48,602 nucleotides of DNA. Origin: an uncultured Planctomycetales bacterium. Lineage in GTDB: Bacteria; 4484-113. The notes under the pieces are model-generated. The model saw nothing but the letters and a program-made list of their open reading frames with translations. It was not told the DNA's origin and did not search any database. The position numbers and the translations under genes are program-made. Positions 1,206 through 17,486 of the stretch are shown here, in pieces (within the stretch, counting starts at the first letter, position 1; each line of letters begins with the position of its first letter). The stretch covers positions 1 through 48,602 of the forward strand of contig CAZXPM010000001.1 of the NCBI GenBank assembly GCA_964643155.1, given 5' to 3'.

Positions 1206-1826
1206 ATGCCGGAAAGGAAGGTGGTTTGCGGTGCAGCGATGGTGGAAATACCGTCTAACTTGCTTCTTGGGTGTCTGCGGGGTGACGATTCCTGCTGGCA
1301 GGAACTCATCCAGCTTACAGGCGGTCACCTAAAGCGCATCGCCCGCGTGAACCTGCGGGACCCCAGCTTCGCCGAGGACGTGCTCCAGGAAACGTATTAC
1401 AAGGTGCTCAGAAACCTACACAAACTTAGAGACCGTTCCAAGGCGATGCCCTGGATAGTGCAGATACTCATCAACGAGTGCAGGATGTTGAACCGCAAAA
1501 CCAAGAAGGAGATACGTAACGAAGACGAGGAGAGCCTCTCCTACACCCTCGCAGCCAATCCCAGCAACCGTGGCCGCGACGAAACCCGCCAAGTGCTTGG
1601 GGGTCTGCTCAAGCAGTTGCCCGAGTTGTATCGCGAGATCCTGGTGCTGCGCGAGGTTGAAGGAATGGACTACACGGAGATTGCATTGGCCCTGAAGATA
1701 CCGGTGGGAACGGTACGCTCCCGGCTGGCCCGTGCCCGCTCCATGTGGGTAGAGCTGGCCGAGGAGGTCGTGGAGGAGGGCCAATTGCTGGACCTCTACT
1801 TTGAAGGAGGAGAAAACGTTGCTTGA
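1206..1826 (+). CDS. RNA polymerase sigma-70 family, ECF-type sigma factor
   Basis: Region 2 ([29 protein letters not shown]) and region 4 HTH ([38 protein letters not shown]). The start may instead be ATG 1239. Confidence 0.85.
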
Positions 1827-2367
1827 CAACTACCTCAAAGGGCTGATTTCGGAGTACGCGGACGATGTGCTGGACCTGGAAACCACCCGGAAGGTGAGCG
1901 AGTTCATTGCTTCAAACAGAGAAGCCGAGGAGTACTTGCTGCGGCTACAGCGGCTCCGCCGCCTGACCCGCGACGAGCTGGCCGAGATGGAAGACGACCC
2001 CACTCTGGAGCTGCGGATAATGAACGATCTGCGGCTGCGCAGCTTTGAGCGCACATGGTGGGAGCGTGTCTGGGACTACAGAGTGTTCTCGCCCAGGGTC
2101 GCGGTGGCAGTGGGAGCGGTGTTCCTCCTGCTGGTGTTTGCGCTGTTCACGCTGTTTGAACGACCGGTGGCGAGCTTTTACCGGGACACCAAGGAGCGCG
2201 TGGTGGAGATGGGGGACGAGGCCAAGTCCGAGCTTGAGGAGCGGGGGCGGGAGCTTTCCGAAGAGATTGAAGGCCTGCTGCTGCCGACTGAAGCAACAGA
2301 GAAGACGGAGCCAAAGGCCAACCGTCGGCAGACCGGCTGGGCACCTGAGGAGGAATTCGTGGCATGA
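1819..2367 (+). CDS. Membrane-anchored anti-sigma factor (putative, non-zinc type)
   Basis: In-frame TTG 1819 is preceded by GAAGGAGGAG and overlaps the sigma stop by 8 nt. It has an N-terminal anti-sigma-like helical segment, one TM (VAVAVGAVFLLLVFALFTLF) and sits immediately after the ECF sigma gene. The track start is 1801. Confidence 0.6.
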   Translation: MLDNYLKGLISEYADDVLDLETTRKVSEFIASNREAEEYLLRLQRLRRLTRDELAEMEDDPTLELRIMNDLRLRSFERTWWERVWDYRVFSPRVAVAVGAVFLLLVFALFTLFERPVASFYRDTKERVVEMGDEAKSELEERGRELSEEIEGLLLPTEATEKTEPKANRRQTGWAPEEEFVA

Positions 2368-2942
2368 CACGCTGCTTCTACCATCCTGAGATTGAAACTG
2401 AGGCGAAGTGCGAACTCTGTGGCAAGGCCATTTGCCCCGAGTGCTATGTATGGCGGGAGGGCAAGCTGCTGTGCGCCAAGTGCGATGCACGGGTTGCAGC
2501 CAATGGATTCGAGCACGTGCGCGATCAGATGGCGCACAGAGAAAGGCCTTATTGGTGGGGGCTCGTGCTGCCGGGCCTGGCCCAACTGCTAAAGGGCGAG
2601 GTGTACAAAGGGTCGTTTTTCCTGGTGTACTTCATCGGCTCGATGGCAGCGGGCAACCCGCTCTTTGGATTCCTCGCCTATGCCCTGAGCATCTGGGACT
2701 TCTTCTCGCCGCTGGTCCACGAAGAGGCCAAATGGGAGACCCACGTTGACTTCCGCACCTTTGTTGGCGTGATGCTGATGGTGGTGGGGGTCATCGGGGT
2801 GATCGCCAACTTCAGCAGCACGGCTGAGACGACCCGACAGGTGGCCGCAGTGGTGATGTCGCTGCTCACTATCGCCTTCGGGCTCTTTATCACGCGGGAG
2901 AAGATGGGTCAGCACGCAAAGGAGGCGGGAAATGACGGTTAG
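2364..2942 (+). CDS. Zinc-ribbon/B-box-like N-terminal domain membrane protein (hypothetical)
   Basis: ATGA overlap with the upstream gene. Cys-rich N-terminus CFYHPEIETEAKCELCGKAICPECYVWREGKLLCAKCD, followed by several hydrophobic TM segments. Confidence 0.6.
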   Translation: MTRCFYHPEIETEAKCELCGKAICPECYVWREGKLLCAKCDARVAANGFEHVRDQMAHRERPYWWGLVLPGLAQLLKGEVYKGSFFLVYFIGSMAAGNPLFGFLAYALSIWDFFSPLVHEEAKWETHVDFRTFVGVMLMVVGVIGVIANFSSTAETTRQVAAVVMSLLTIAFGLFITREKMGQHAKEAGNDG

Positions 2943-3711
2943 AGATTTCGTGATGCTTGCCTTGATCCTGGTTGTAGGGCTGGCGTTCAACCGCTGCGCC
3001 TTTGAAGGCAGGCCGGTATTCGAAAACGAGCATGGCGCATCACACATGTCGAGCCAAACCGACGAATCGCTGGAGGAGCCGTTTGACCGCATTGACCGCC
3101 AGCTGGACGAATTCGGTGAAGCAATAGAGCGCAAGAGCGAAGAGTTGGAAAGGCGGCTGGAACGGACTATTGGCCGCGCGGAGGATGACAATTCGGCCCG
3201 CAGCAGTGTAACGATCACCAAACGCCTCCGGGATGGCTCGGATCTGCACTTGGTGCTTCCATCCGCCTGCGAGCAGACGATACTGGACTGGGGCGAGATG
3301 GAGAAGCCGCGGTGGAGCATTTCGCTTTCGGGCGACGAGGAGCTTGACGCCCCGGACATCAGCTACGACAAGGCCAAGGGTTCCACCACTATTGCCTACG
3401 GGGAACGCACGCCGGTCACGGTCAAGCTGGCCCTGCCGAGCGTTCCCTTCCGCCTGACCATAAAGGAGCCGGACTTCATTGACGCCGAGCTTCTCCCCGG
3501 CGAACTCGCAGTCCGCCTGGGACGCATCGGCGACGTGAACGCGGTGCGCCAGGGTGACCGCCTAACGCTCAGCGGCGACGGGTGGTCACTGGTGTTGAAC
3601 GGCATCAAGCTCCCTGTTCGGATTGTGGACTCCGTCGGCCGCGTGCTCGGTGAGTTTGCAGCCGACGCCGAGGCCAGGCTGATGACCGGCGAGAAAGGAG
3701 GTACCCAATGA
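2932..3711 (+). CDS. Hypothetical membrane-anchored protein (N-terminal TM, coiled-coil, beta-rich C-terminus; possibly toastrack-like)
   Basis: 259-aa ORF that overlaps both neighbours (11 nt upstream, ATGA downstream). TM is FVMLALILVVGLAF. I recognise no catalytic motif. Confidence 0.5.
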   Translation: MTVRDFVMLALILVVGLAFNRCAFEGRPVFENEHGASHMSSQTDESLEEPFDRIDRQLDEFGEAIERKSEELERRLERTIGRAEDDNSARSSVTITKRLRDGSDLHLVLPSACEQTILDWGEMEKPRWSISLSGDEELDAPDISYDKAKGSTTIAYGERTPVTVKLALPSVPFRLTIKEPDFIDAELLPGELAVRLGRIGDVNAVRQGDRLTLSGDGWSLVLNGIKLPVRIVDSVGRVLGEFAADAEARLMTGEKGGTQ

Positions 3712-4898
3712 GGCGCGCATCGTTTGGTCTGCTTATCATCTTGATCGGGGTCGTTGTACTCCTTTGGGAGCTCCTGCCCAACTCGGATACGGTCTTGAGG
3801 TTCTGGCCCCTGCTCATCGTCGCCTACGCCTTGGCCGTCCCAGGCATCACCAGAACAGCCTACCGCCTCAGCCTGGCTGCGGTGGGTGGGATCCTGCTGG
3901 TTGACGCGCTGCTGCCACAGATCTTCGGCCAGCATTTCGGCGCGCTGTGGCCCCTGCTGCTCATACTCCTGGCAGTTGCCATCCTCCTGGGTTCGGCTCA
4001 ACCTCAGCGCCGGCGAATTGAGGTGAAGTATGAGGAATCGCCCAGGGACCTCGGCGAGCGGATTGCGCGGAAATTCGAACGGAGAATCGACATCACAGGA
4101 ACCACTAGCAAGGATTCGGCATCCTCTTCTACGAAAGCCAATTCCATTCAGGAGGAACCGACTATGACCATCAAGGATACGGATGCCATCGGCAGAGAAG
4201 ACGCGAGCACCTCGGACCCGAGCACCAAGGGCGCAGAGACGCGGGCGAAATACGAGGGTGACACGGCTCACTTCTTTTCAGAACTACCAGAGGGAGTCAG
4301 CGAAGTGCGCTGCCACATTGACTTCAACGTCGGCCTGCTGGAGATCGGCGGCGCCACCGACAAGCTCTTTGAGATTGACGCGGAAATCACCCATGGGATT
4401 GAGCCCGAGGTCCGCGTCCACCAGGAGGAACGGGGCGGGCACAAGATCGCAGTACTGGTGGTGGAACAGAGCTACGGCGCGGGCCGCACCCCCCTGAACA
4501 TCAAATCCAAGTGGGTTATGCGGCTCAACCGCAGCCTGCCACTTGAGCTGGACTGCGAGCTGAACGCCGCGAGAGCGGAGCTGGACCTGCGCGAACTGCG
4601 GGTCACCAGCGTGAACCTGGAGAACAACGCGGCCAAGGTGGACCTTCGGCTGGGCGAGCGTGAGAGCAACGTAAGCGCGGTTGTAGAGAACAACGCGGCG
4701 AAGGCGGAGATTGTGCTTCCGGCATCATTCGGCGTGGAGGCGACGCTGGAAAACAACTTCGGAAAGCACGACTTCAACGAGAGCCTGCCGCACCGCACCA
4801 ACGGAATCTGGCACACCGAAGGATTTGCCGAAAGCGAGAAGCGCATCAGGATGCGCGTGGAGAACAATGCCGGCGCTGTCCGGCTACGGAGGATATAG
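3708..4898 (+). CDS. LiaF-like envelope-stress protein (LiaI-LiaF-type TM region + C-terminal DUF2154/toastrack-like repeats)
   Basis: Four N-terminal TM helices. The C-terminus has repeated beta-strand units (ENNAAKVDLRLG, ENNAAKAEIVLP, VENNAGAVRLRR). RBS AAAGGAGG lies upstream. It is adjacent to a PspC gene. Confidence 0.65.
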   Translation: MRRASFGLLIILIGVVVLLWELLPNSDTVLRFWPLLIVAYALAVPGITRTAYRLSLAAVGGILLVDALLPQIFGQHFGALWPLLLILLAVAILLGSAQPQRRRIEVKYEESPRDLGERIARKFERRIDITGTTSKDSASSSTKANSIQEEPTMTIKDTDAIGREDASTSDPSTKGAETRAKYEGDTAHFFSELPEGVSEVRCHIDFNVGLLEIGGATDKLFEIDAEITHGIEPEVRVHQEERGGHKIAVLVVEQSYGAGRTPLNIKSKWVMRLNRSLPLELDCELNAARAELDLRELRVTSVNLENNAAKVDLRLGERESNVSAVVENNAAKAEIVLPASFGVEATLENNFGKHDFNESLPHRTNGIWHTEGFAESEKRIRMRVENNAGAVRLRRI

Positions 4899-5309
4899 GT
4901 GGCAAACGTAAAGGACAGACTCTACCGTTCGCGGACCGACAAGATCCTCGGCGGCGTGTGTGGCGGCCTGGGAAACCACTACGGGCTGGATCCGCTCATT
5001 ATCCGCATCATCTGGGTGGCAGCGCTGTTCCTGCTTGACTTCGGCGTTCCGCTGCTGGTCTACATTCTGTGCTGGCTGCTAATACCTCGCGAGCCAACCG
5101 GCTGGAGAGTGGAAGCGGGTTTTGACGCTGGGTTACAGCGCGGCGTTTTCCTTGGAATCGCTCTCATCGTCGTCGGAGTAATGGCGCTGCTGGCAACCGT
5201 GCTGGTTATCAGCTGGCCAGTGCTTCTAGCGATAGGCATGATTGCCCTTGGCGCGCTGATTGCACTGGGCGCCTTCCCTAACGGATTCAGCCACAACAAA
5301 GAGGGATAA
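4899..5309 (+). CDS. PspC domain-containing membrane protein (phage-shock protein C family)
   Basis: N-terminus LYRSRTDKILGGVCGGLGNHYGLDPLIIRIIWVAALFL is the classic PspC domain, followed by TM helices. GTG start immediately after the upstream TAG. Confidence 0.85.
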   Translation: MANVKDRLYRSRTDKILGGVCGGLGNHYGLDPLIIRIIWVAALFLLDFGVPLLVYILCWLLIPREPTGWRVEAGFDAGLQRGVFLGIALIVVGVMALLATVLVISWPVLLAIGMIALGALIALGAFPNGFSHNKEG

Positions 5310-5314
5310 ACAAC

Positions 5315-6292
5315 ATGGCTACTGAAAGCAAGAGGGACTCACACAACATCAACAGCATTTTCTGGGGCACGCTGATACTGCTGGTCGGCGCGACCTGGCT
5401 GGGCATCAACATCGGCATGGTGGAGCCAAGCGCCTGGGAAATCCTCATGAAGATGTGGCCGGCGCTGCTCATCATCTGGGGGTTCAATATCATCGTCTCG
5501 CGCACCGCCATTCGGTTTCTGGCGTACATCACTCCGCTGGTGCTAGTGGCTGCATTCGGTTACGCTGTGTTCTACGCGCCAACGGACGACGGAGAGGGAT
5601 GGTTCTCCACGTTTGTTCTGCCATTTACCATCAATCACAACGGAAGCACTAACGTCGGCGAGCTGACCGAGTTCACGTATGTGCTGGATGACATCAAGGG
5701 CGTGGAGAGGGTTGAAGTCCAGCTCAGTATGGGAGCCGCCGAACTCAGTGTAATGGCCGCCGACGAGGACGCGGCATCAGTTGAGGTCAGGAGTAACGTC
5801 GGCGAGCCCGAAGTCACGCTGGATGTGGTAGGCAACAAGCTGGTGCTGGAAGGACAATCGCCACGGGTGAAAAGCGTCATCGGGAAAGTGAAGCAGGAGT
5901 GGGAAGTCGCGCTGCCGGCTGGGCTGCCACTAAGCTTCGAACTGGACACCGGGGCATCCGACAACAACGTTGACCTGCGGGAGTCCTTGCTGGAATCACT
6001 GGATGTTGAGAGCGGCGCGGTGGACCTGGACCTGTGGCTGCCGTATCCGGACGAGCAGGGATATGACGTACGCATAGAGTCGGGGGCGTCCAATATCAAC
6101 CTGTGGTTCCCTAAGAACGCTCCCGTGCGGATTGAGGCGGATCTGGCGGTTGCGGGCACCAACTTCCGCGAGGCCGGGCTGGAGAAGCAGAGAGGCTACT
6201 GGGTGTCACCCGACTACACCGTGGGTGTCCCGTTCGCAGATGTCAACATTTCTGCAGGCGTCGCGTCAGTCAGGGTGCACTTCGAGGAATGA
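5315..6292 (+). CDS. LiaF/toastrack-family membrane protein (DUF5668-like TM region + DUF4097/DUF2154-like C-terminal domain)
   Basis: N-terminal SIFWGTLILLVGATWLGINIG...MWPALLIIWGFNII. The beta-rich C-terminus has repeated segments (GAVDLDLWLP, ESGASNINLWFP, VRIEADL). Confidence 0.65.
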   Translation: MATESKRDSHNINSIFWGTLILLVGATWLGINIGMVEPSAWEILMKMWPALLIIWGFNIIVSRTAIRFLAYITPLVLVAAFGYAVFYAPTDDGEGWFSTFVLPFTINHNGSTNVGELTEFTYVLDDIKGVERVEVQLSMGAAELSVMAADEDAASVEVRSNVGEPEVTLDVVGNKLVLEGQSPRVKSVIGKVKQEWEVALPAGLPLSFELDTGASDNNVDLRESLLESLDVESGAVDLDLWLPYPDEQGYDVRIESGASNINLWFPKNAPVRIEADLAVAGTNFREAGLEKQRGYWVSPDYTVGVPFADVNISAGVASVRVHFEE

Positions 6293-6342: not shown

Positions 6343-6370
6343 GAAACCCGTCTGAATGAGGACGGGTTTC
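6343..6370 (+). terminator. Perfect 10-bp hairpin ending the ECF/PspC operon
   Basis: GAAACCCGTC-TGAATGAG-GACGGGTTTC, 50 nt after the stop at 6292. The U-tract is weak (TGCTAT). Confidence 0.5.
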
Positions 6371-6373
6371 TGC

Positions 6374-6379
6374 TATAAT
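6374..6379 (+). promoter_or_regulatory. Consensus -10 box (TATAAT) upstream of the TPR/J-like gene
   Basis: TATAAT lies 24 nt before ATG 6403 and directly after the hairpin. I found no convincing -35. Confidence 0.3.
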
Positions 6380-6402: not shown

Positions 6403-9400
6403 ATGGGCATCCTACGCGCACTTTCGGGACTCCTCGGCGGCAAATCCCTGCGGCAAGCCGCCACGTTTCTGTCAACCGGCAAGACCGAAGAAGCCCTGAA
6501 GATTGTAGAGAAGTTGGCCGCCGGCTTTGAACCGCCGGTTCCTGAAGAGAAGCTAGAGGAGTACGCAGAGCTGCACGCGCTCTGGGGGCGGTGCCTGGCG
6601 AAGATGAAGAACCCCGAGGCGCTCAAGCACTTCGTTATCTCCGACGAGGCGAAAGAGAACGAGTCCTTGTTGCGCGAGGGGGCTATTCTCATCGATGAGC
6701 TGGGAGTAGTCTCGCCGGAAGCTACAGCGTACATACTGAAGCTGGCGCAGCGCACAAGCGGCGAGAAGGGCTTCTTACTGAACTACGCCAAGAAGCTCGT
6801 TGAAGAAGGGGGGGCCGCGCTCTCGGGGGAAGAGTTTGAGCTGGTGATGGAGGCCAGCCGGACATTCACTCTCTGGAAAGGTGGAAGCACGCTACTGGCG
6901 GAGAAGTTCCTGGAAGAGGGCCGCCGAGACGCCGAGGCGATTGACATCTACCGCATTGCTTACCCTACGCGCCAGCACGACGAGAAGCTGGTCGCAATCC
7001 TGCTGGAGCATTTGACGGTCAACAACGAGCGCAGCGAATTCGCGGCCAAGCTGTACAAAGACCAGCTGGACAGCGGCCTAGAGGACGATAACGCGCTGCG
7101 GCTGCTCGCCGAATACTACATTGAGCAGCAGGAAGTAACGCCCGCCACGATTGAGTACATCCAGCGGGCGTTGGAGAGGAAGTTACCGGGGCACGACTAC
7201 CTGGAGAAGTTCGCCGGATACCTGCTGCGCTCGCGCAAGGAGTTCCTAGACAAGAAGAAACTGCTCCTGCTGGTTTTCCGGGCGGGGTACTTCAACAAGA
7301 ACGTGCTCGCATTCCTCGCGCAGGCGTTTGCTGAGGAGGGGAACTTCTCTGAAGAGGCGCTGACCGCGTACGAGGAAGCACTGAAGAACAACCTGCTTAC
7401 CAAGCGCATCACGCTAGTCCTGGCCGAGTACTTCTTAAGCGAAGACCGCCGCGACGACTTCGCGTGCAGGGTGTATGAGCATTACCTGGGCTCATGGCCG
7501 GAAAGGCGGCAGCCCAGACTGTACAGCCTGCTGGCGGCAAGCTATATTGAAAAAAAGCGGGTGGATGAGCAGGCGCAAGCCATATATGAAGTTGCGCTCA
7601 CTCACGACCCGAACAACCCGGAGATTCTCCCACTGCTGGCGGCGAGCTACCTGACCTTTGAAACACGCCAGCCAAAGGCCTATTCGGTTTACGAGCGCGC
7701 CTTCCCCCTGATGGACGAGGCGCACAGGAAGCAGGTGGCGCTGCTGCTGGCAGAGAAGCGCATTGAAGACGGGAATTTCGACCGGAAGACGCTGGATTAC
7801 ATTGACCTGGCGCTGCCGCAGGCGCAGGGAAGCCGCAAGGAAGCCCTGCTGGAGGCCCGCACGAAGTGCTTCCTGGCGCTAGACCGCAAGGATGAGCAGG
7901 CAGCGAAGATATACCTGGAGCTCTACCACCGCAACATTGAAGAGCGTAAAGAAAACACGAAGCTCGTGAAGATCCTCTCCGATATCCTCGTTGAAAGCCC
8001 CGAGCTAGTGGACGCACCGGAAGAACTGAAGCTGAGGATATGCTACGAGCGGTTTGAACTGGAGAAATACGAGTGCCCGGCGGAGATTTCGTTCCTGCTG
8101 CTGGAAGATGTACTTACGCGCAACCATGACTACAAACACCGGCTGGCGCTGGCAGTTCGGTGCTTTGACCTAGACTGCGATAGCCTTTCCAGGCGGCTGG
8201 AGGAAACGGGGAACCTTGAGCTGCTGCAAGAGATCGGGAAGTTCTACCTCGACCGGTTCAACTATGAGCTCTCGGCCAAGGCATACCTGGTAGCCAACAC
8301 CTACAAGCATACTGAAGAGAACGACTACAACCTTGCGAAAATCCGGTTGGCGGAGAACCGCGAAGACGAGGCGCTTGAGATGCTAGAGGCTGTCAAGTCG
8401 CCAGAGATGAAGGCCAGAGTGCTTTACTGGCGAGCGGCGGCGCTGCAGCAGAGAATGATGCCCCAGGAGGCGCGGCCGCTCATTGAGGAGCTTGAGGCCA
8501 ACCCGGATTCGGTGCCTGAGATACTGATCAAGCTACGCCTGGGCCTGAACGCCGAGCTGGAGGGAGACTATGGAGACGCGGTGGAGCTTTACCGCGAAGT
8601 GCTGGAAGATCCCAGCAGCCTGCCCTACCGCCGGTGGGTAAGCCTGGAGATTGGCATTGCATTGTGGCGCATGGGGACAACCGACGAAGCGCAGAAGGAG
8701 CTGGAAGCGGTATACCGGCATAACCCGAACGGACGCGCTGAGCAGCGGACCTATTCAATGATCCTCGTGGCCCGCGGATACGAGCTCATCCAGGAGAATC
8801 AATGGGACCGGGCGCTCGGCAACTTCATTGAAGCCATTGAAGTGAACCGCACTGACCGCTTCTTGCGCAGTGTAATCGTGGACCTGCTGCTGATTTACGC
8901 GAAGAGGTACTTTTTCAACCGTGAATACGAGATGGCCGTGAGGATACTGGAAGTGGCGCACCGCGTCCTGCCCAAGAGCATGGATGTGAAAGTGTACCTT
9001 GCATACTCGTACCATCTCATGAAAAAGTACGGTCAAGCGCTGATTTACTACCGCGATATCACCTGGACGACCGATGCTCCGATGCTGGAGCGGTCACAGG
9101 CCTATTGCTATATCCAGAACAACCAACCGGAGAAAGCGTGGCGCGTCTTCCTAGACCTGAAGCGCCGCGGGACCTTGCTTCCGAGCAGCATCCCGTTGCT
9201 ATTGCAGTCATACCTGGCAGATCAGGCCCAGGAGGGGTCGGAGACATTCAAGAGCTTCGAGTTTCCGGAGGACACCAAGAGCCCTATCCCCTTTGCCGCT
9301 TTCTATATCCATGACGGGCAGTACGACCGCGCGCTGAAGTTGCTAGCCAAGCATGCCAAAGGCGGGCACCAAGAACTCCAGCGGCTCTGGTTCATGGGCA

Positions 9401-10374
9401 AGGCATGTTCCAAGCAGGGCGACCGCAAGCTGGCCGTGACCTACTGGAAGCAGCTGCTGGAAGCCTCACAGAAGCGGCAGACGCACGACGAGACGAAGCT
9501 CTCAGAACTACTGGAAATAGGGCTGGCCTTTCTCCAGGCTGGTTACGCCCAGGAGGCCATGGAAACCTGGGAGGACCTTAAGAAGCTCGCGCCCGATTTC
9601 CAGTACCTGAGCAAGCTCTACGCCTACACCCTGGACCTCAACGCCTACAACCTCGCGCTAAAGGGCAACATCAAGCTCGCCATCGCCGAATGGGAGAAGG
9701 CGGTGGACTACGACTCGGAGAATCTCTCAATTATCCAGAATATCGCCATCGCGTATATGTCGGTTGACGACTTCGACCGCTCGGCGGTTTACTGGCGCAA
9801 ACTGCTAAACCGCTGGAAGGTGATGGTGGACCGCAATCCCCAGAGGTACGCTCATCTCACAGTGGCGATAGGCGAGATTGAGCGGCTGCTGGCCGACGTA
9901 TTCGTGTCGCAGCGTGAGCGGCCCGATGAGGTCTATCTCGCCAAGACCGAAGAGATGGTGGACTACTTCCAGCAGGCGAACCAGTTCTACTGGATACTGG
10001 GCCTTAACAAGAATGCAACCAAGGGGCAGATTGAAAAGAGCTACTTCAGGCTTGTAAAGATATTCAACCCCGAACGCCATGCCAGCGACTTCATGCTGCT
10101 GGAAGACGCATACGCGAACCTGACAGACAGACGCAAGCGCGACCGCATAGACATCTTCGCCTACGAGCCGGTAGACGCCGGCCGCCTGCGCAAGATCGTG
10201 CTGGGAGACAGCAAGGTGGGTGCAGCGTTTGAAGATCTGAACTTGAGCGCGTCGGTGCCGGAACCGGACTACTCGCAGCTACAGCCGGACGACACACCGC
10301 CTGAGACCGTGGTAAAGAAGCTGGAGGAGTCAATTCAGTACTACTTCCGGCTGGGAGACATCTCGGTAGTATGA
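6403..10374 (+). CDS. Giant TPR-repeat protein (1323 aa) with C-terminal degenerate J (DnaJ-like) domain
   Basis: Helical-repeat composition throughout with many A/L/Y/E-rich 34-aa-like units. The C-terminal YWILGLNKNATKGQIEKSYFRLVKIFNPERHASDFMLLEDAYANLTDRRKRDRIDIF matches the J-domain helix I-III pattern, with NPE in place of HPD. Confidence 0.75.
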   Translation: MGILRALSGLLGGKSLRQAATFLSTGKTEEALKIVEKLAAGFEPPVPEEKLEEYAELHALWGRCLAKMKNPEALKHFVISDEAKENESLLREGAILIDELGVVSPEATAYILKLAQRTSGEKGFLLNYAKKLVEEGGAALSGEEFELVMEASRTFTLWKGGSTLLAEKFLEEGRRDAEAIDIYRIAYPTRQHDEKLVAILLEHLTVNNERSEFAAKLYKDQLDSGLEDDNALRLLAEYYIEQQEVTPATIEYIQRALERKLPGHDYLEKFAGYLLRSRKEFLDKKKLLLLVFRAGYFNKNVLAFLAQAFAEEGNFSEEALTAYEEALKNNLLTKRITLVLAEYFLSEDRRDDFACRVYEHYLGSWPERRQPRLYSLLAASYIEKKRVDEQAQAIYEVALTHDPNNPEILPLLAASYLTFETRQPKAYSVYERAFPLMDEAHRKQVALLLAEKRIEDGNFDRKTLDYIDLALPQAQGSRKEALLEARTKCFLALDRKDEQAAKIYLELYHRNIEERKENTKLVKILSDILVESPELVDAPEELKLRICYERFELEKYECPAEISFLLLEDVLTRNHDYKHRLALAVRCFDLDCDSLSRRLEETGNLELLQEIGKFYLDRFNYELSAKAYLVANTYKHTEENDYNLAKIRLAENREDEALEMLEAVKSPEMKARVLYWRAAALQQRMMPQEARPLIEELEANPDSVPEILIKLRLGLNAELEGDYGDAVELYREVLEDPSSLPYRRWVSLEIGIALWRMGTTDEAQKELEAVYRHNPNGRAEQRTYSMILVARGYELIQENQWDRALGNFIEAIEVNRTDRFLRSVIVDLLLIYAKRYFFNREYEMAVRILEVAHRVLPKSMDVKVYLAYSYHLMKKYGQALIYYRDITWTTDAPMLERSQAYCYIQNNQPEKAWRVFLDLKRRGTLLPSSIPLLLQSYLADQAQEGSETFKSFEFPEDTKSPIPFAAFYIHDGQYDRALKLLAKHAKGGHQELQRLWFMGKACSKQGDRKLAVTYWKQLLEASQKRQTHDETKLSELLEIGLAFLQAGYAQEAMETWEDLKKLAPDFQYLSKLYAYTLDLNAYNLALKGNIKLAIAEWEKAVDYDSENLSIIQNIAIAYMSVDDFDRSAVYWRKLLNRWKVMVDRNPQRYAHLTVAIGEIERLLADVFVSQRERPDEVYLAKTEEMVDYFQQANQFYWILGLNKNATKGQIEKSYFRLVKIFNPERHASDFMLLEDAYANLTDRRKRDRIDIFAYEPVDAGRLRKIVLGDSKVGAAFEDLNLSASVPEPDYSQLQPDDTPPETVVKKLEESIQYYFRLGDISVV

Positions 10375-11060
10375 AACGCAAGGCCATAACAGCTATTCTG
10401 CGCGAAGCTGCCAACCGCGTTGACTTCACTACCGAGCGTTATTACAATATATCATTCAGATTGGGGAACGAGGGGCTTCCGGGCAGCGTACCAGAAACCA
10501 AGCCCGATTACAGCCTCTACGAATACCAAACTGAACTGAACCGGATTCGCATTGAGCTATTCCGCTTGCAGCGGGGCTTAGCCGGGCTGAAGATGCCCGC
10601 CATTGAAGCGGTAGGGCTGGACCGGGTCGGCGAGGACCTTGAGCGGCTCAGGGGGGATCTCGTGAGACTCCTGGGGAAAGTGGACAAGGTCGCCAGCCTG
10701 GAGCCGTCCAAGGCCGCGATTGAGGGCTTCCTGGAAGTGGCCGATGCTTGCGAGCGGGTGCTTGCTGCGGCCAGAAAAACAGAGGGCATACCTGAAAGCG
10801 TGATGGCCGGGATGGGATCCATCTACCGGCTATTGCTCGGGAAGCTGGCGCGTCTCGGGGTTATCCAGATTACAGATAACGAGCGCTTCGATCCAAAGGT
10901 GCACATGGCGCTGGCGACCGTGGAGGATCCCAGCAAGCCGGACGGCAGCATCGCCGAAGTGCAACTGACCGGATACATGCTGGACGATCAGGTACTGCGC
11001 AGCGCACAAGTTATCGTGGTGCGGAATCGCAGCACTGGCGATGACACTGGTGCCGGATAG
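10371..11060 (+). CDS. grpE: GrpE-like nucleotide exchange factor
   Basis: ATGA overlap with the upstream gene. Coiled-coil N-terminal half. The C-terminal beta-domain signature is ERFDPKVHMALATVEDP...GSIAEVQLTGYMLDDQVLRSAQVIVV. Confidence 0.75.
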   Translation: MKRKAITAILREAANRVDFTTERYYNISFRLGNEGLPGSVPETKPDYSLYEYQTELNRIRIELFRLQRGLAGLKMPAIEAVGLDRVGEDLERLRGDLVRLLGKVDKVASLEPSKAAIEGFLEVADACERVLAAARKTEGIPESVMAGMGSIYRLLLGKLARLGVIQITDNERFDPKVHMALATVEDPSKPDGSIAEVQLTGYMLDDQVLRSAQVIVVRNRSTGDDTGAG

Positions 11061-11087
11061 TGCGATCTTGGATTTATAGGAGTTATC

Positions 11088-12836
11088 ATGGCGCAGATTG
11101 TTGGAATCGACTTGGGCACGACCAACTCGTTGGTCGCGGCCATAGTGGACGGCAAGCCGACCCTCATTCCCAATGAGCGAGGCAAGTTCATCACGCCTTC
11201 CGTCGTCGGCTTCACCGACACGGGAGAGCTGCTGGTGGGCGAGACGGCAAAGAACCAAGCGGTAGCTAATCCCGAGCGCACTGTCACTAGCATCAAGCGC
11301 ATGATGGGCACGGACCGGAGGATAGTAATCGGCGAGCGCGAGTATTCGCCGCAGGAGATTTCGGCGGTCATCCTCAAGAAGCTCAAGCTGGACGCCGAGA
11401 CTTACCTCGGTACCGTAGTTAACGAGGCTATCATTACGGTTCCTGCGTACTTCACCGACGCCCAGCGGCAGGCCACCAAGGATGCTGGAGAGATTGCCGG
11501 CTTTAAGGTGGAGCGCATCATCAATGAGCCCACTGCCGCCGCCCTGGCTTATGGCATTGACAAGGGCGGAGAGGCGCGCACCATTATGGTGTACGACCTC
11601 GGCGGCGGCACTTTTGACGTCTCTATCATCCGGCTGGTTGAAGGGGCGTTCAAGGTGCTCGCCACCACCGGCAACAACAACCTAGGCGGCGACGACTTTG
11701 ACTACCGGCTTGTGCAGTACCTCATTGACCGCTTCAAGGACAAGGAGAAGATTGACCTTAAGAACATCCCCGATGTCTCGCAACAGCGCGCCATCTTGCA
11801 GCGCTTGAAGGAGGCCGCAGAGACCGCGAAAATCGACCTCTCCTCGCTGTTGGAAACCGAGGTCAATCTGCCTTTCATCTATACCGAGGGCGAAGAACCG
11901 CTGCACCTGCACGAAACCATTAGCCGCGCAAAATACGAGGAGCTGGTGCAGGACCTGGTGCAGCAGACGGAGCAGCCCATGAAGCTGGCTTTGTCTGACG
12001 CCAATCTGCCGCCGGACCAGATTGACGCCATCATCCTGGTCGGCGGTATGACCCGAACGCCGATGGTGCAGCGCCTGGTGCGGGAAGTTATGGGACGCGA
12101 TGCACTGAAGGACATCAACCCCGAGGAGTGCGTGGCCATCGGCGCATCAATCCAGGCCGGCATCAAGCGCGGCTCGCTGGAAGAGTTCGTGGTGGTGGAC
12201 GTTGCGCCCTTTACGCTCGGCATTGAGACCGAGGGCGATAAGTTCTCACCCATTGTACCGCGCAACACTGCGATCCCCTGCAGCCGCAAGAGCCTGTACC
12301 GTACGACCGTTGACGGGCAATCGGAAGCGCTAATCCACGTCCTTCAGGGCGAGAGCCACAAGGCCGCGGAGAACGAGTCTCTGGGCGAGTTCATCCTCGG
12401 CGGGATAACTCCAGCCCCCAAGGGCGAGTCCCTGGTTGAGGTGTCGTTTGACTACGATGTGAACGGCATCGTGAAAATCACGGCCAAGGACCGCAAAACG
12501 GGCCAGGCCAAGTCCATCACGATTAAGGCCTCCAAGAAGCGGCTCTCCACCGACGAGGTCGCCTATGCCCAGCGTGACATCAGCAAGCACACAGGCAGCA
12601 TGCTGGCGCAGCGGGAGAAGTCGAAAGTCCTGTTTGAGGCGGAACGCACTCTCAAGGACCTCAGCGGGCTCATTAAGGCCGGCGAGAAGGGCGAAAAGAA
12701 GATTGACGGCATCGAACTCGCGGCCCTCAATGAGATGTCCAAGAAGCTCAAGGACGCACTGAAGACAGAGGACTTGGGCAAACTTGAAGAGTACGTTGAG
12801 AAGGCGACAGGGCTTATTGCCGATTACTCATACTGA
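11088..12836 (+). CDS. Hsp70/DnaK-family chaperone paralog (582 aa, short lid)
   Basis: [47 protein letters not shown], and the SBD-beta [22 protein letters not shown] lies upstream. Confidence 0.9.
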
Positions 12837-12857
12837 CGCCTACCAAGGGTGGTGTAA

Positions 12858-13478
12858 ATGCGGTTGCCGCAATTGACAGCCTGCCCCGTGTGCCACAGCG
12901 TCCTATCGGAGAGGGTGGCAGCGTGCCCCAACTGCGAAACAGAGCTGACACCTTACTATGAGCAGCACGAGGCCGCGCGGGCGCTGATTAACCAGGCAGC
13001 CAACGCTGTTTCCCGTGGCGAGATGATTGAAGCCAAGCGGCTGCTGGGCGATGCTGAGCGAATGCTGCCATCGCCGGTGGAAGCAGTAGAAGAGCTGCGC
13101 ACTGTGATCTTGCTGCAGGAGCATCGCCTGGAGGACGCTCTCAGAGCGGCTTCAGCCCTACCTGATGACTGCCCGGGGAAGCCCAGACTGCTGGACGATA
13201 TCGCCGCAGCATCCGAGCGAGTGGAGAACGCGAAGATGCACTTCAACCTAGCCCTCACTGCTGCAAGGCAGGGTTCCCTGGCTGATGCGGCCTATCACGT
13301 GGAGAAAACGCTCTCGTTGGCACCGCACCTGCCTGAGCCCTGGCGGCTGGCAGCCAAGATAGCTCTCAAGCGTGAGGATTTTGCAGCGGCGCAACGATAC
13401 CTATCACGTGGCGCAGAGCTGTTTCCGCGCGATAGCTACCTGGCACCGCTGGCAGCAGAGATTAAACAGGCCAAATAG
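12858..13478 (+). CDS. Zinc-ribbon + TPR-like protein (hypothetical, part of the Hsp70 operon)
   Basis: N-terminal CPVCHSVLSERVAACPNCETEL (CxxC..CxxC), followed by helical TPR-like repeats. It starts 21 nt after the dnaK-like stop. Confidence 0.6.
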   Translation: MRLPQLTACPVCHSVLSERVAACPNCETELTPYYEQHEAARALINQAANAVSRGEMIEAKRLLGDAERMLPSPVEAVEELRTVILLQEHRLEDALRAASALPDDCPGKPRLLDDIAAASERVENAKMHFNLALTAARQGSLADAAYHVEKTLSLAPHLPEPWRLAAKIALKREDFAAAQRYLSRGAELFPRDSYLAPLAAEIKQAK

Positions 13479-13518: not shown

Positions 13519-13546
13519 AGGGGCGCACCCATTCGGGCACGCCCCT
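13519..13546 (-). terminator. Rho-independent terminator for the minus-strand PKD/Kelch operon (also closes the plus-strand Hsp70 operon)
   Basis: On the minus strand: AGGGGCG..loop..CGCCCCT followed by TTTTCTTTG. It lies between the convergent stops at 13478 and 13567. Confidence 0.65.
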
Positions 13547-13566: not shown

Positions 13567-16371
13567 TTACTGCAGGTTCGCCAGAGCTTCAACCTGCAAC
13601 TCCACCACCGCGGTCGCCACACCCTGCTCCGTCTCGCCGCCGACAATCCAGATAGTGTCGTAGGGCGTAGGATTGCCGTCAGTCATAAAGGTGGCGAATT
13701 TCACCGAGCCAGCACCCACCCGGCCAACGCCCGGGTCGGGAGAGACAGTGCGGGACCAGCGGTACGTGTCAGGATTGAACACCTCTGCCTCAGCCACGTA
13801 AGTAGGAGCGCCCTGGTCAAACGGGTAGTCAACTCCGCCGTAGACGTAGATCTTGCCGTTGATCACCTCGGCAGTGGCGCCAGCACGCGCGTTGCGCATA
13901 TCGGGGAGAATCTCCCATCCGCCGGTGAGCAGGTTCACGCGTTCCACCGTGTGGACGCTCTGACCCTGGTTGTTGCGCCCGCCTATTACGTACAGGTAAA
14001 TCGCATTCTGCGATGGAGCATCCACCACCATGGCAGAGTCGTAACGCGGAGTCGGCATTGCGGGGATGACGCCGGTGTACCAGGAGTTGGTCCCCGGCGT
14101 ATAGAGCCAGCCTGTTGGCGAGACTTGCTCACCCGGCGGGTCTCCCCGGAGGCCGCCGAGCATGATGATTGAAGCATTCCCGCCGTAGTTGATGCCGAAA
14201 ATGGCTGCCATCTGGCGCAGCTCAGTGTCGCTGTTTCCGATGGTACCCACGACCTCCCACGGCACAACAGGCCGATCAAGCGGGTCGTCCGGCTCGCTGT
14301 CTATAGCGGGCAGGCGCTCCACCGTGGACACCGTGGCCTGGATGTTGTTGTAACCGCCGATAGCGTAGATGTAGGGAACGCTAGTAGTCCCGCGCGCGTA
14401 ATCCGACAGCGGCTCGGCAATTAGCTGGCCCCGGCCATTGGACAGTGGCAGCCGGTCACTCACCTCGTAGGACAATATCCACGTGCCAGTAGTGAGCTCT
14501 GCCTTTTGTCTCAGCAACTGAACGCTGCGCAGCGCCATATTGCCGTCCATGCCGCCGACAGCGTAAACCCGGCGCTCCTTGTAACGGTCGTCTCCGAGGT
14601 CGGGCGTGCCACGGTCGTCAATGATCGTTACCGCCGCCAGCCCGAAGTCGCGGCGCGGCTTGAACGCAACACCGGTAGCGTCCAGATTGCGGCGGGCCAC
14701 GAAAGAAAGGGGTGTGTGTTCCACACGGTTGGCCAATTCCAAGCCAGCTTCGGACAGCGCCACCGTCTTCACTTTGATGGCTTTGTATCCTGGTAGCAGC
14801 GTAACCGGGAAGTTGACCACAAACACTGCCGAGCTGCCGCTGGTTCCGGAGCCGAAGAGCTGGATAGTAGCATCTACGGTCTCAGGGTCGCCGTCGAGGT
14901 CAACCGGCTCGTAGGTTCCGTCAAACTCCGGATCCCAAGCCAGCTCCACCGGGTCCCCGTTGGGAACCAGGGCGCCCGGGTCGGACGCTTCAGCATACAC
15001 GTCCTCGCCGGTGAGATCGATGAGGAACTTGTAGATGCCAGTGGAACCGCCCGCAGTGACCCTGATGGCTGCCTTAATGCCTGTGTTGGGCTGAACCAAC
15101 AGGTACTCCTGACGGTCATCTGTGAGCTTGCTCAGGTCAAAGCCGCCATCCCGGTCATAATCCGCGTACACCGCAATCTGCGTAGTGAGCGGGTTGACCA
15201 CGGGCTCGTAAGCTCGGTCAACCACGTGCACCGGCCACTCCATACGTATAATCTGGCCGACACCATCCACAAACTGCAGAGCAAGCGTGTAATCCCGAGA
15301 GGCCGCCCCGTACGTGATGTACGGGTTTACCATTATCTTGAGGTCGGCATCGTAATAGGGAACTGACGCGGTTGTCGTGTTGGCGTCATAGATGCCATCG
15401 TCAGTGAAGTCCCACCAGAACGCATACGGCTCAATACCCGGATGATCCGGGTCCACGGTCACGCTAGCATGCAACACCGGCTCGCGCTCTGCGGGGATTT
15501 CGCTGGAAGAGTCGAAACTGATAAGGATGGACCCGTCCGAGCGCACCGGCGGCGAAGCGTTGACTATCAGCTCCGGCGGCCCTGTCGGCTCGGAGGGGAC
15601 TTCCTTGATCACAACCAGCGGGAACTCGCGGCGCACCGTATAGCCGTTTGCATCGGTAACCAGCAGCACCGCTACGAAGCTCTTGCTCGTGCCTTCAAAC
15701 AGGGTGTAAGTGTACTGCGGGTTCTGCAACACCGAATCCGTTTCGCCGTCGCCGTCGAAGTCCCACTGGAACCGGTACGGAGGTGTGCCCGGATTGAGTG
15801 GGTCCGGGAATACGCGGAAGTATGCCGGCTCGCCGGAGATGAAGCCGTAAATGGGCTCGCCTTCCGCATCGTAACCCAGCACCGTGTCGCTGAAGACGCG
15901 GGTGAGGCTTGGGTCAAGCGAGAACTGCGGCTCACTGGTAACAGTGATCGCAAGCGGTTCGCTTGTCATAGACTCACCCGCGTCATCAACGACTCTGACT
16001 GTCGCCTGGTACACGGAGATCCCGACACTCTGGTCTGCGGCACGGAGATAGTACAGGTGGTACGCCTGCTCGGTGCGGCTGGCCACATCGTTGATGTAGA
16101 AGTCAAACGCACCGTCATTGTCGTAGTCCCACATGTACGTGTAGGGCATCGTCCCGCCAGACACGGTCGCGATGAAGTTGACGCCAAGCGGAGAGCCACC
16201 AAGCGTCGGTGAGGCAGTGAAGGTGACGATGCGGAGATCGTCCACACCGTCGCCGCCACCGGCTTGGCTGGGTAGGCTTGGCGCCTGCCCACCTCCATCG
16301 CCGCCTCCGCAGGAGGAGGCGGCGATGAGGACCGTAATCAACAACATCCCGATTGCTTTCAGCACTTTCAT
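13567..16371 (-). CDS. Lipoprotein with N-terminal PKD-like domains and C-terminal Kelch-repeat beta-propeller (934 aa)
   Basis: Lipobox LIAASS-C followed by GGGDGGG. PKD signatures include GSPLGVNFIATVSGGTMPYTYMWDYDNDGAFD and PPYRFQWDFDGDGETD. Kelch blades include RRVYAVGGMDG, YIYAIGGYNN, LYVIGGRNN and KIYVYGGVD. Confidence 0.8.
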   Translation of the reverse strand: MKVLKAIGMLLITVLIAASSCGGGDGGGQAPSLPSQAGGGDGVDDLRIVTFTASPTLGGSPLGVNFIATVSGGTMPYTYMWDYDNDGAFDFYINDVASRTEQAYHLYYLRAADQSVGISVYQATVRVVDDAGESMTSEPLAITVTSEPQFSLDPSLTRVFSDTVLGYDAEGEPIYGFISGEPAYFRVFPDPLNPGTPPYRFQWDFDGDGETDSVLQNPQYTYTLFEGTSKSFVAVLLVTDANGYTVRREFPLVVIKEVPSEPTGPPELIVNASPPVRSDGSILISFDSSSEIPAEREPVLHASVTVDPDHPGIEPYAFWWDFTDDGIYDANTTTASVPYYDADLKIMVNPYITYGAASRDYTLALQFVDGVGQIIRMEWPVHVVDRAYEPVVNPLTTQIAVYADYDRDGGFDLSKLTDDRQEYLLVQPNTGIKAAIRVTAGGSTGIYKFLIDLTGEDVYAEASDPGALVPNGDPVELAWDPEFDGTYEPVDLDGDPETVDATIQLFGSGTSGSSAVFVVNFPVTLLPGYKAIKVKTVALSEAGLELANRVEHTPLSFVARRNLDATGVAFKPRRDFGLAAVTIIDDRGTPDLGDDRYKERRVYAVGGMDGNMALRSVQLLRQKAELTTGTWILSYEVSDRLPLSNGRGQLIAEPLSDYARGTTSVPYIYAIGGYNNIQATVSTVERLPAIDSEPDDPLDRPVVPWEVVGTIGNSDTELRQMAAIFGINYGGNASIIMLGGLRGDPPGEQVSPTGWLYTPGTNSWYTGVIPAMPTPRYDSAMVVDAPSQNAIYLYVIGGRNNQGQSVHTVERVNLLTGGWEILPDMRNARAGATAEVINGKIYVYGGVDYPFDQGAPTYVAEAEVFNPDTYRWSRTVSPDPGVGRVGAGSVKFATFMTDGNPTPYDTIWIVGGETEQGVATAVVELQVEALANLQ

Positions 16372-16418
16372 CAGTGTCGGGTCCTCCCTGTCAAAGGGCT
16401 ACCGAACTCAACCAGACG

Positions 16419-17426
16419 CTACTGCGGCTGGTAGAGCTCAACAATCTTGTTCATACCGAGTTCAGTAAGTCCACCGAAAATGTAGTACTTACCTTCGCCG
16501 GTGAAGAAGTCGTTCGGAGCGACTATGCCGGTACCACCAGCCCATCCACGCGGGATAAGGCCGCTGGGGGCGACTGACACCGTGCCATTCGCCAGGACGT
16601 CATAGACGCCGCCAGTGTATCCATCGACTGTGCGCCCACCCATCTGGTGGTACAGGAATCCGCGTTCGTTCACCTGCCAGCCTGCCACTACACCGGCCGC
16701 CGCCTCAGGCGTGTTGGCCAGCGTACGCCAGCTACCGCTGGTGGGATTAGTGACGCTGTCAAACGTGAACTCGTCAACCTGCGAGATGTAGTTGCCGTTG
16801 CGGTCAAATCCACCGAATACGATGATCTTCCACGGCCGATTGGTCATCTTATCAGGCAGAATCACAATCGAATCGTGGTATGCACGCTCAACCGGCATCG
16901 GAGGCATCAAGGAGTAGTCCCCCGCCTGGGGATCCTGGCCTTCCTGACGCTGCGCCGGCGGCGCCCACGCATTGAACCACCGCATCGCGTTGGTCGGCAC
17001 ACCGCTGTCGTTGATACCGCCGGTGATGAACACATAGCAGTACGGGCCCTCAGGCCATACCGGCGGCGGGAAGATATTACCCAGCGACTCAATGGTCACC
17101 GCTGAGTGGCCGTACAGGGGCTCGGGCAGCGGGTTCAACGGAACCGAGGCGTTCGCGCCGCCTCCACCCTGGTTGTCCATGGGTGGACGATCAGGCACGA
17201 TAGGCGGGTTGACATTGTCGCCTTCCTGTGGGAGCCAGTCGTAATCGTGGAAGGTGTACCGATTGGACCAGATATCTGTCTGGTTGTTGATGTACTGGGC
17301 GATTGGTACGCCGTTCATGATCAGAATCGGGAACTGGTCTTCCACGCCGTAGGTCTCGGGATAGTACTTCTGAACGATGTCCAGCGGCTCGCCGCCTTCG
17401 TCGCGGCCGCCAAACACGAAGAACAC
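16419..17426 (-). CDS. Kelch-repeat C-terminal half of a second PKD/Kelch lipoprotein
   Basis: The frame is open up to the TGA at 17487-17489. Kelch blades include FFVFGGRDEGG, YVFITGGIND, IIVFGGFDRNG and YYIFGGLTE. The C-terminus resembles that of 13567..16371. There is no signal peptide of its own, and it is in the same frame as ORF 17487..19409. Confidence 0.7.
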   Translation of the reverse strand: MFFVFGGRDEGGEPLDIVQKYYPETYGVEDQFPILIMNGVPIAQYINNQTDIWSNRYTFHDYDWLPQEGDNVNPPIVPDRPPMDNQGGGGANASVPLNPLPEPLYGHSAVTIESLGNIFPPPVWPEGPYCYVFITGGINDSGVPTNAMRWFNAWAPPAQRQEGQDPQAGDYSLMPPMPVERAYHDSIVILPDKMTNRPWKIIVFGGFDRNGNYISQVDEFTFDSVTNPTSGSWRTLANTPEAAAGVVAGWQVNERGFLYHQMGGRTVDGYTGGVYDVLANGTVSVAPSGLIPRGWAGGTGIVAPNDFFTGEGKYYIFGGLTELGMNKIVELYQPQ

Positions 17427-17442
17427 AGGAACACCGTAACCA

Positions 17443-17482
17443 CCACGTCCTAGGGTCCAACCTGGACCCGTGTCAGGACGGG
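17443..17482 (-). other. Stem-loop immediately 3' of the in-frame UGA (SECIS-like candidate recoding element)
   Basis: In the mRNA after the UGA, the lower stem is CGUCCU(+7..12)/AGGACG(+36..41). The upper stem is GGGUCCA(+18..24)/UGGACCC(+28..34), with apical loop GGU. Confidence 0.35.
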
Positions 17483-17486
17483 GCTG

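Follow-up and report, generated by a model that had tools for sequence, protein, structure and literature searches.

A conserved four-gene locus of candidate phylum UBP7 encodes a distinct, tail-less DnaK-like Hsp70 together with a GrpE and a giant tetratricopeptide-repeat protein that ends in an HPD-less J-like domain

The closest characterised analogue of the system described here is HscC of Escherichia coli, which works with the J-domain proteins (JDPs) DjlB and DjlC. These partners carry an HPE triad instead of the His-Pro-Asp (HPD) triad and are tail-anchored in the membrane, and DnaJ does not stimulate HscC, which responds to its own JDP alone. A second point of comparison is the co-transcribed grpE-dnaK pair GrpS-SglK of Myxococcus xanthus, which is specialised and exists beside the housekeeping DnaK of that organism (bioRxiv 10.64898/2026.08.28.747804). 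Here, we describe a four-gene module in a 48,602-nucleotide (nt) stretch of DNA from an uncultured Planctomycetales bacterium (assembly GCA_964643155.1, contig CAZXPM010000001.1; hereafter, the window), which encodes a giant tetratricopeptide repeat (TPR) protein with a J-like domain at its end, a GrpE-like nucleotide exchange factor, a DnaK-like Hsp70 and a small zinc-ribbon/TPR protein. An earlier reading of the letters of this DNA (the original prediction) had proposed that the four genes form a dedicated chaperone machine and had named grpS-sglK as a precedent, which proved to be real. After a comparison with related loci, we lean towards the reading that the module is an orthogonal, GrpE-dependent Hsp70 machine that is insulated from DnaK and DnaJ and works beside a canonical DnaK that is as yet unseen.

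The module resembles HscC-DjlB/DjlC in what appears to be a specialist Hsp70 with a coevolved variant J-protein, in the clustering of the genes and in the short C-terminal tail of the Hsp70. It differs in that HscC lacks the GrpE signature and salt bridges and is GrpE-independent, whereas the module Hsp70 keeps these determinants and is encoded with a GrpE. Furthermore, HscC has deletions, and an insertion in the substrate-binding domain (SBD), that are absent from the module Hsp70, and NCBIfam groups the module Hsp70 with DnaK. The J-like domain of the module goes beyond the HPE of DjlB and DjlC in having also lost the His (x-P-E) and is carried at the far end of a TPR scaffold of 1300 aa, and the tail anchor, where there is one, is on the zinc-ribbon/TPR protein. 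As for GrpS-SglK, the grpE and hsp70 genes of the module are adjacent and co-oriented in all loci, a likeness of gene arrangement; the predicted JDP of the M. xanthus system, SgmC, is encoded elsewhere, and neither a TPR giant nor a zinc-ribbon/TPR gene is reported in that operon. In common with the canonical hrcA-grpE-dnaK-dnaJ layout, the module has the order grpE-then-hsp70, retains the GrpE determinants and, in one UBP7 subclade, is contiguous with hrcA and a class-A dnaJ, but it has no controlling inverted repeat of chaperone expression (CIRCE), the dnaJ is upstream instead of downstream, there are two extra TPR genes and the Hsp70 is non-canonical. The literature searched gave no description of this Hsp70 subfamily, of giants with x-P-E or of a J interface with inverted charges.

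The Hsp70 of the window matched PF00012 over its full length (622 bits). It scored below the cutoffs of the DnaK model TIGR02350 (666.7 vs 822.55) and of the HscA model TIGR01991 (491 vs 708). The protein is colinear with the DnaK of Geobacillus except for a 6-residue gap, and its clade lies outside all HrcA-linked DnaKs, namely those of Clostridia, Spirochaetota and Nitrospirota. Its identity to canonical DnaKs was 55-60% in the nucleotide-binding domain (NBD) and 42-48% in the SBD-beta, whereas canonical DnaKs of different phyla share 67-75% and 69-85% among themselves.

Residues at individual positions were counted in 116 subfamily members (clusters) and in 65 canonical DnaKs, and are given in E. 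coli DnaK numbering. A review by Mayer (PMC8215388) lists three residues of the substrate pocket as marks of all prokaryotic DnaKs, namely M or L at the arch position 404, A429 and V436 on the pocket floor. In the subfamily these are replaced (M404 to E, A429 to T and V436 to A, corresponding to E382, T407 and A414 of the window protein), with A at 436 in 116/116 members and E at 404 in 63/64 of the module clades. The canonical set had V436 in 65/65, L391 in 65/65 and A429 in 59/65.

The same review describes a charged, disordered tail of ~30 aa on DnaK, and short tails and altered pockets in specialists. It was found that the tail of the module Hsp70 is missing, as had been proposed, and that the lid, which had been proposed to be short, is not: the alignment with E. 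coli DnaK extends as far as residue 589, and what is lacking is the acidic tail of ~30-60 aa. The window protein ends in ...LIADYSY directly after the lid (ADYSY at nt 12819-12833), and the outgroup proteins add 30-60 residues that finish in EVVDAEFEDV-like ends. In place of the tail, the subfamily has a short conserved C-terminus, [IL][AS]D[YWF]xx. The C-termini of the TPR giant (window 10339-10371) and of the Hsp70 covary between subclades, ...GDISVV occurring with ...ADYSY and ...PDWTVL with ...SDWGL; as sequences, these paired acidic-aromatic and acidic-hydrophobic ends are reminiscent of shared tails that are read by TPR domains.

The catalytic part of the protein is kept. The ATPase motifs are present, the first of them reading differently from the form quoted in the original prediction, and the ATPase core and hydrophobic linker are retained. 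The residues that receive the HPD triad (R167, Q378 and P419) are found in 116/116 members, and D477 is conserved too. Of the determinants for GrpE, the bridge pair K55 and E267 is present in 116/116, position 264 is E in 106/116 and D in the remaining 10, and the signature loop 290-295 is present. Because all of these features are kept, the Hsp70 is predicted to work as an ATP-driven clamp that depends on the GrpE of its own operon for nucleotide exchange. A client range that is narrower, or shifted, is suggested by the altered pocket together with the missing tail. Convergent genes for Kelch/PKD surface proteins are the sole recurrent neighbours of the module, joined in the subclade of the window by an envelope-stress cluster of extracytoplasmic function (ECF) sigma factor, PspC and LiaF genes. 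Taken together, the separate clade, the remodelled pocket and the absent tail agree with the earlier description of this Hsp70 as non-canonical, and by its sequence it is a distinct, tail-less DnaK-like subfamily so far undescribed.

The Pfam and NCBIfam searches returned the domains that had been assigned to the four proteins. The TPR giant matched many TPR families and, at aa 1195-1250, PF00226 (DnaJ; 34.5 bits vs a cutoff of 27.8). Comparison of this J-like domain with canonical J-domains using hhalign gave a probability of 97.2% (E = 3.8e-11) and confirmed the register, and the identity to DnaJ J-domains in tblastn was ~30%. By these alignments the domain is a genuine J-domain homologue, which agrees with the J-like element recognised at the outset. 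What had not been noticed is that the HPD triad is absent: all of the giants (15/15) have x-P-E (N/D/G/T-P-E) followed by [RK]-[HY], and therefore the element cannot be assumed to be a normal J-domain. The helix II-III loop is also 6-7 residues shorter. Approximately 24 positions of the domain, including F26, R27, P34, E35, R36, H37, M48 and E51 (DnaJ numbering), are invariant across clades in which the TPR regions are 40% identical, a pattern indicative of strong purifying selection on the domain. The same HPD-less signature, x-P-E-[RKQ]-H ... DLFxFN, was also seen at the N-terminus of four proteins of 110-492 aa (P0290, P0292, P0294 and P0296), which suggests a wider, undescribed J-like family.

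In the canonical complex, DnaJ residues R22, K26, R27, K48 and K51 dock on E206, D211, E217 and D477 of DnaK, H33 bonds with the backbone of L391, P34 packs on P419, and D35 bonds with R167 and Q378 (Mayer 2021, PMC8215388). In the Hsp70 subfamily, E217 is replaced by K in 116/116 members and E206 by R or K in 108/116, whereas a basic residue at 206 or 217 was found in 0/65 canonical DnaKs; the window protein has R182 at the position of E206 (nt 11631-11633) and K189 at that of E217 (nt 11652-11654). The J-like domain has counterpart changes (R22 to E, K26 to F, K48 to M and K51 to E), so that the window domain reads E22, F26, R27, M48 and E51. Among the 15 giants, E22 and M48 each occur in 13/15 and F26 and E51 in 15/15, and R27 is the only one of the five basic residues that is kept. 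Complementary changes are thus shown, in sequence, on both the J and the Hsp70 sides, and from them we infer that the J-like domain and the Hsp70 contact each other. The DnaJ proteins of six UBP7 species keep K/R22, R26, K/R27, HPD and K48, the same as outgroup DnaJs, and this canonical basic face implies a canonical DnaK partner with an acidic patch somewhere in these cells. The pairs obtained from direct coupling analysis by Malinverni 2017 (K26-D208, K23-N187, R19-T189 and K51-Q424) fit the charge swap and do not sharpen the case.

The gene order TPR giant (~1320 aa), GrpE, Hsp70 (~581 aa) and zinc-ribbon/TPR protein (~200-250 aa) was found in at least 15 loci from four clades of UBP7 and relatives (the window, L001-L006, L009-L016, L042, L043 and L125), including the closed 4.11-Mb genome CP060262.1, and was present in every relative with readable context. 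Because the same order recurs in every related locus examined, the module is far beyond chance. The flanks vary, with LiaF/PspC genes in the window subclade, DUF554 in L002, RbfA and insertion sequence (IS) elements in L006, hrcA-dnaJ in L009-L017 and L125, groESL in L042 and type II secretion system ATPases in L043. This variation in flanks indicates that the unit is held together by selection and not by synteny inertia alone, and the co-occurrence of the four genes in related genomes, on which the notion of a dedicated unit depended, is borne out. A word search returned 13 full-length relatives of the TPR giant, of 1314-1338 aa, and HMMER, run exhaustively against 1.84 billion representatives, gave ~20-25 clusters at 50% identity, with a nearly constant length of 1295-1338 aa.

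The Hsp70 subfamily reaches beyond the module, in that L007 has only GrpE, Hsp70 and a zinc-ribbon gene, and L008 has a lone Hsp70. The trio of L007 (5430-9254; 'bacterium JZ-2024 1' lineage), in which the third protein has a double zinc ribbon, is located directly after prepilin-type (N_methyl/PilW_C) genes, and a 770-aa relative, P0120, is an Hsp70 with a match to the PilM_2 domain of type IV pilus assembly.

The GrpE of the window matched PF01025 (82.6 bits) at model positions 61-164 of 165, which is the C-terminal two-thirds, and the N-terminal long-helix part was unmatched; all scores against the NCBIfam GrpE equivalogs were below the cutoffs. Family members agree in the helical bundle and beta-domain and vary in the N-terminal region. 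The grpE gene was always directly 5' of the Hsp70 gene in the loci examined. Across the family the length ranged from 173 to 327 aa around a constant C-terminal domain, the longest version (L042:8964-9947, 327 aa) having a low-complexity, probably coiled-coil, N-terminal insertion. The zinc-ribbon/TPR protein had weak zinc-ribbon matches at aa 7-33, below the cutoffs, and a TPR_2 match above the cutoff, and an orthologue is the fourth gene in all module loci. The proteins of L042 (11767-12513) and L043 (11907-12608) end in a hydrophobic segment typical of tail anchors; those of the window and L009 have no tail anchor, and that of L043 has also lost the second CxxC pair.

These observations can be combined in a model in which the Hsp70 would cycle with its own GrpE, and the J-like domain would dock at the usual J site of the Hsp70 through inverted electrostatics. 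Docking would deliver the Hsp70 to anything bound on the ~1150-aa TPR platform, and the inversion would keep the pair insulated from the canonical DnaJ and DnaK of the cell. The J-like domain keeps P34 and an acidic residue at 35 but has no His, and for this reason the triggering of ATP hydrolysis is probably weakened or retuned. The zinc-ribbon/TPR protein could be a second adaptor, tail-anchored in the membrane in some clades (compare DjlB and DjlC), with a possible role in positioning the machine or in reading the C-terminal motif. Elsewhere in UBP7 genomes, a canonical DnaK would probably be encoded.

Parts of this model have counterparts in other organisms. The eukaryotic proteins DNAJC3 (p58IPK) and DNAJC7 (TPR2) also have TPR repeats followed by a C-terminal J-type domain; this architecture has been reported from eukaryotes only and with a true HPD, TPR-J fusions being common as a class, and the scaffold of the module is ~3x larger. 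The mitochondrial protein Pam16 (Tim16) has a J-fold without the catalytic triad, is expected to regulate or tether, and pairs with a true J-protein, Pam18. The J-like domain of the module similarly lacks the catalytic triad, but, unlike the case of Pam16, direct docking is suggested by reciprocal changes that the Hsp70 itself carries. The short conserved C-terminal motif of the Hsp70 and the membrane anchor on one TPR partner in some clades recall the EEVD-reading TPR receptors Hop, Tom70 and Sec72, and it might be speculated that TPR domains of the operon read the motif. A bolder form of the proposal, which we advance with reserve, is that the subfamily constitutes a fourth prokaryotic Hsp70 class beside DnaK, HscA and HscC, one that would be GrpE-dependent, have an inverted J-site and answer only to an HPD-less J-like TPR platform, with a C-terminus read by the TPR proteins of the operon as a bacterial counterpart of the EEVD-TPR system.

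A different explanation, which we consider unlikely although deserving of close attention, is that the module is the only DnaK-GrpE pair of its lineage, a fast-diverged descendant of the hrcA-grpE-dnaK-dnaJ operon with two acquired TPR co-chaperones, in which the DnaJ of subclade B is the real activator and the J-like domain is regulatory or tethering. The gene neighbourhoods supply several points that count against an insulated machine. In at least six UBP7 species (8 loci), all of the one subclade (B), hrcA and dnaJ are directly 5' of the module. The order in CP060262.1, and in the subclade-B loci that extend far enough, is peptidyl-prolyl isomerase (PPIase), hrcA, class-A dnaJ (with HPD, CXXCXGXG and DnaJ_C), TPR giant, grpE, hsp70 and zinc-ribbon/TPR gene; the run from hrcA onwards is contiguous in L009/L010, L013-L016 and L125, and in L011, L012 and L017 as far as the contigs reach. 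The module of L042 has groES-groEL as its divergent neighbour. Adjacency to hrcA-dnaJ and groESL is what the main chaperone locus of a lineage would show, and the clear separation from the housekeeping layout asserted in the original prediction could not be upheld. In subclade A, to which the window belongs, hrcA follows the same PPIase, the next genes after it are a radical-SAM gene and PhoH, and dnaK, grpE and dnaJ are all missing from its vicinity, as if the PPIase-hrcA neighbourhood were shared and hrcA had merely been split off. Among ~100 outgroup loci, hrcA is followed by grpE-dnaK in most of those in which the contig reaches far enough, and grpE-then-hsp70 is the canonical order. However, the association of hrcA with dnaJ is absent from subclade A and from L002, L006, L042 and L043, and in the unrelated lineages of L091, L096 and L113 hrcA is followed by dnaJ with no grpE-dnaK in the locus. 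Since such stand-alone pairs exist, hrcA-dnaJ appears to be an independent operon type, and adjacency to it alone is no mark of a housekeeping dnaK.

Regulatory sequences also argue against descent from the housekeeping operon. With up to 4-5 mismatches allowed, no CIRCE was found near hrcA or the module in the window or in any UBP7 locus (the hrcA upstream regions searched were those of L009-L017, L039-L041, L044 and L125), and a perfect CIRCE was present in 19/21 outgroup hrcA loci. The module furthermore has its own conserved -10 box, even where it is located behind dnaJ. A variant with CIRCE geometry, CTGGCAGTC-N9-GACTGCCAA, is present 72 nt 5' of groES in L042 (4688-4714) and was not found near any module or hrcA; it is possibly a lineage-specific HrcA operator.

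At the level of the proteins, an only-DnaK role would fit the retention of the HPD-receiving residues in all subfamily members, the score against the DnaK equivalog NF001413, the cutoff of which was narrowly passed (687.8 vs 648), the NCBI annotation of the protein as DnaK, and the literature view of GrpE dependence as a hallmark of generalist Hsp70s. It fits poorly with the divergence of the SBD-beta from a domain that is otherwise well conserved between phyla, with the changes at 404, 429 and 436, and with the loss of the acidic tail. The docking residues of the Hsp70 are reversed, yet the DnaJ face is basic in six UBP7 species, a mismatch that would be hard to maintain if that DnaJ were the only partner. 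The Hsp70 lacks the ~24-residue NBD insert found in diderm outgroup DnaKs (Nitrospirota and Spirochaetota), yet genes for LpxB and a lipid-A acyltransferase (window 23522-25021 and 47238-48155) indicate a diderm organism with lipopolysaccharide (LPS). A second canonical dnaK or grpE was not observed in the window or in any UBP7 locus examined, nor was any second Hsp70 seen in them, which leaves the name of paralog given to the Hsp70 in the original prediction presumptive; the 48.6 kb of the window contain no other chaperone gene, hrcA, dnaJ or Hsp70, and a metagenome scan with an alignment of UBP7 DnaJs had only other phyla among the matches listed.

It is much less probable that the J-like domain is a decayed relic that contacts no Hsp70, with both of the TPR proteins being clients, or unrelated scaffolds whose genes merely share the operon. 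The HPD triad has lost its His as well as its Asp, and either substitution abolishes stimulation in every system tested (Mayer review, PMC8215388); only one of the five basic docking residues remains, and an AlphaFold2 model of the C-terminal 173 aa of the giant was not confident (pLDDT 45). Decay, however, would not be expected to leave ~24 invariant positions under strong purifying selection in a protein with its length held at 1295-1338 aa, and the substitutions are specific, charge-reversing and mirrored on the Hsp70 instead of random. The recurrence of x-P-E-[RK]-[HY] in distant giants and in small stand-alone proteins also speaks against a relic. Contact between the J-like domain and the Hsp70 is made less certain by the fact that the contact partners were taken as residue sets from the review and not from coordinates, and by the distant subfamily members L007 and L008, which share the reversed charges and have no adjacent J-like gene; no small J-like gene was found within 10 kb of either Hsp70.

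TPR-rich giants beside NTPases occur in some conflict systems, and a module made of an Hsp70-like NTPase and TPR sensors could be read as an anti-phage system, but this we regard as extremely improbable, since none of the four proteins matched a PADLOC family (0 families), there is no effector domain, the GC content is uniform at ~0.60 with no tRNA or integrase nearby, and the neighbourhood (EF-P, M24 peptidase and Kelch/PKD genes) is conserved and vertically inherited.

The dedicated-machine proposal is supported in part, by the conserved operon and, unexpectedly, by charges that are reversed reciprocally on the two sides of the J/Hsp70 interface. If the orthogonal machine is correctly described, a J-type domain without His-Pro-Asp could still be a dedicated Hsp70 partner, which would challenge the rule that HPD is indispensable. 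An inverted interface, if real, would be a natural case of two Hsp70/J circuits insulated within one cell, and the pair would offer synthetic biology a ready-made orthogonal chaperone pair. If the Hsp70 were instead the only DnaK of UBP7, it would show the extent of drift that is possible in a housekeeping Hsp70 and in the surface on which J-domains dock, and would raise the question of how a canonical DnaJ copes. The 116 clusters in themselves represent an undescribed DnaK-like subfamily with a reshaped pocket.

The features of the module are listed in Table 1. All four open reading frames (ORFs) were recovered on the + strand where they had been placed; as had also been stated, the first two overlap by ATGA (10371-10374), and the next two intervals are 27 and 21 nt long.

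Table 1. Coordinates of the module genes and associated elements in the window
Feature	Position	Strand	Basis or detail
TPR giant, 1323 aa; C-terminal J-like domain and ~70-aa conserved tail	6403..10374	+	ORF; TPR families and PF00226
J-like domain, aa 1190-1262 of the giant	9970..10188	+	N-P-E at aa 1222-1224, nt 10066-10074
GrpE-like nucleotide exchange factor, 229 aa	10371..11060	+	ORF; PF01025
Tail-less DnaK-like Hsp70, 582 aa, distinct subfamily	11088..12836	+	ORF; PF00012
Zinc-ribbon and TPR protein, 206 aa; CPVC...CPNC at aa 9-26, nt 12882-12935	12858..13478	+	ORF; domain matches
Perfect hairpin, 10-bp stem: GAAACCCGTC / loop TGAATGAG / GACGGGTTTC	6343..6370	+	Sequence
TATAAT -10 box (TGCTATAAT, extended -10-like), 24 nt 5' of the start codon of the TPR giant	6374..6379	+	Sequence
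GC-rich hairpin, 12 bp; T-tract on minus strand	13519..13546	-	Sequence

The original prediction had the module bracketed as one transcription unit by a hairpin and TATAAT upstream and a terminator downstream. These elements are present, and the -10 box is conserved: TATAAT is found at the same relative position in L001, L002, L004, L006, L014 and L015, also where dnaJ is directly upstream, and is 18-30 nt 5' of the TPR gene in most loci. A consensus scan 5' of the TPR gene in the window gave no -35 match. The upstream hairpin is not kept in the orthologous loci L001 and L004, in which TATAAT is kept, and probably serves the preceding liaF-like gene as its terminator instead of belonging to the module. 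Because its T-tract is on the minus strand, the downstream hairpin serves mainly to end the convergent Kelch gene, and is at most bidirectional for the module.

The composition of the window (GC ~0.60 throughout) is that of an ordinary chromosome with housekeeping and LPS genes. Directly 5' of the module, a co-directional, envelope-stress-like cluster (window 1206-6292) encodes an ECF sigma factor, three small unannotated proteins, and LiaF-TM, PspC-domain and LiaF/toast-rack proteins; it is kept only in the subclade of the window (L004/L005 4732-9876, and partly in L001 7439-9899). Convergent to the module on the minus strand (window 13567-19409) are genes for Kelch-propeller and PKD proteins of 934, 335 and 640 aa, followed by EF-P and an M24 Xaa-Pro peptidase. 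Three minus-strand ORFs of this region (640, 186 and 377 aa; 17.5-21.2 kb), which had been guessed to be a canonical dnaK-grpE-hrcA set, actually encode the 640-aa PKD protein, EF-P and the M24 peptidase. The downstream Kelch/PKD-EF-P-M24 synteny is common to both UBP7 subclades and was found at the same position in L001, L002, L004, L009 and L125. This synteny is lost in L006 (12579-17369 of a 2.7-Mb contig), where two IS1595-family transposases flank a methyltransferase/Mrr-type restriction gene 3' of the module.

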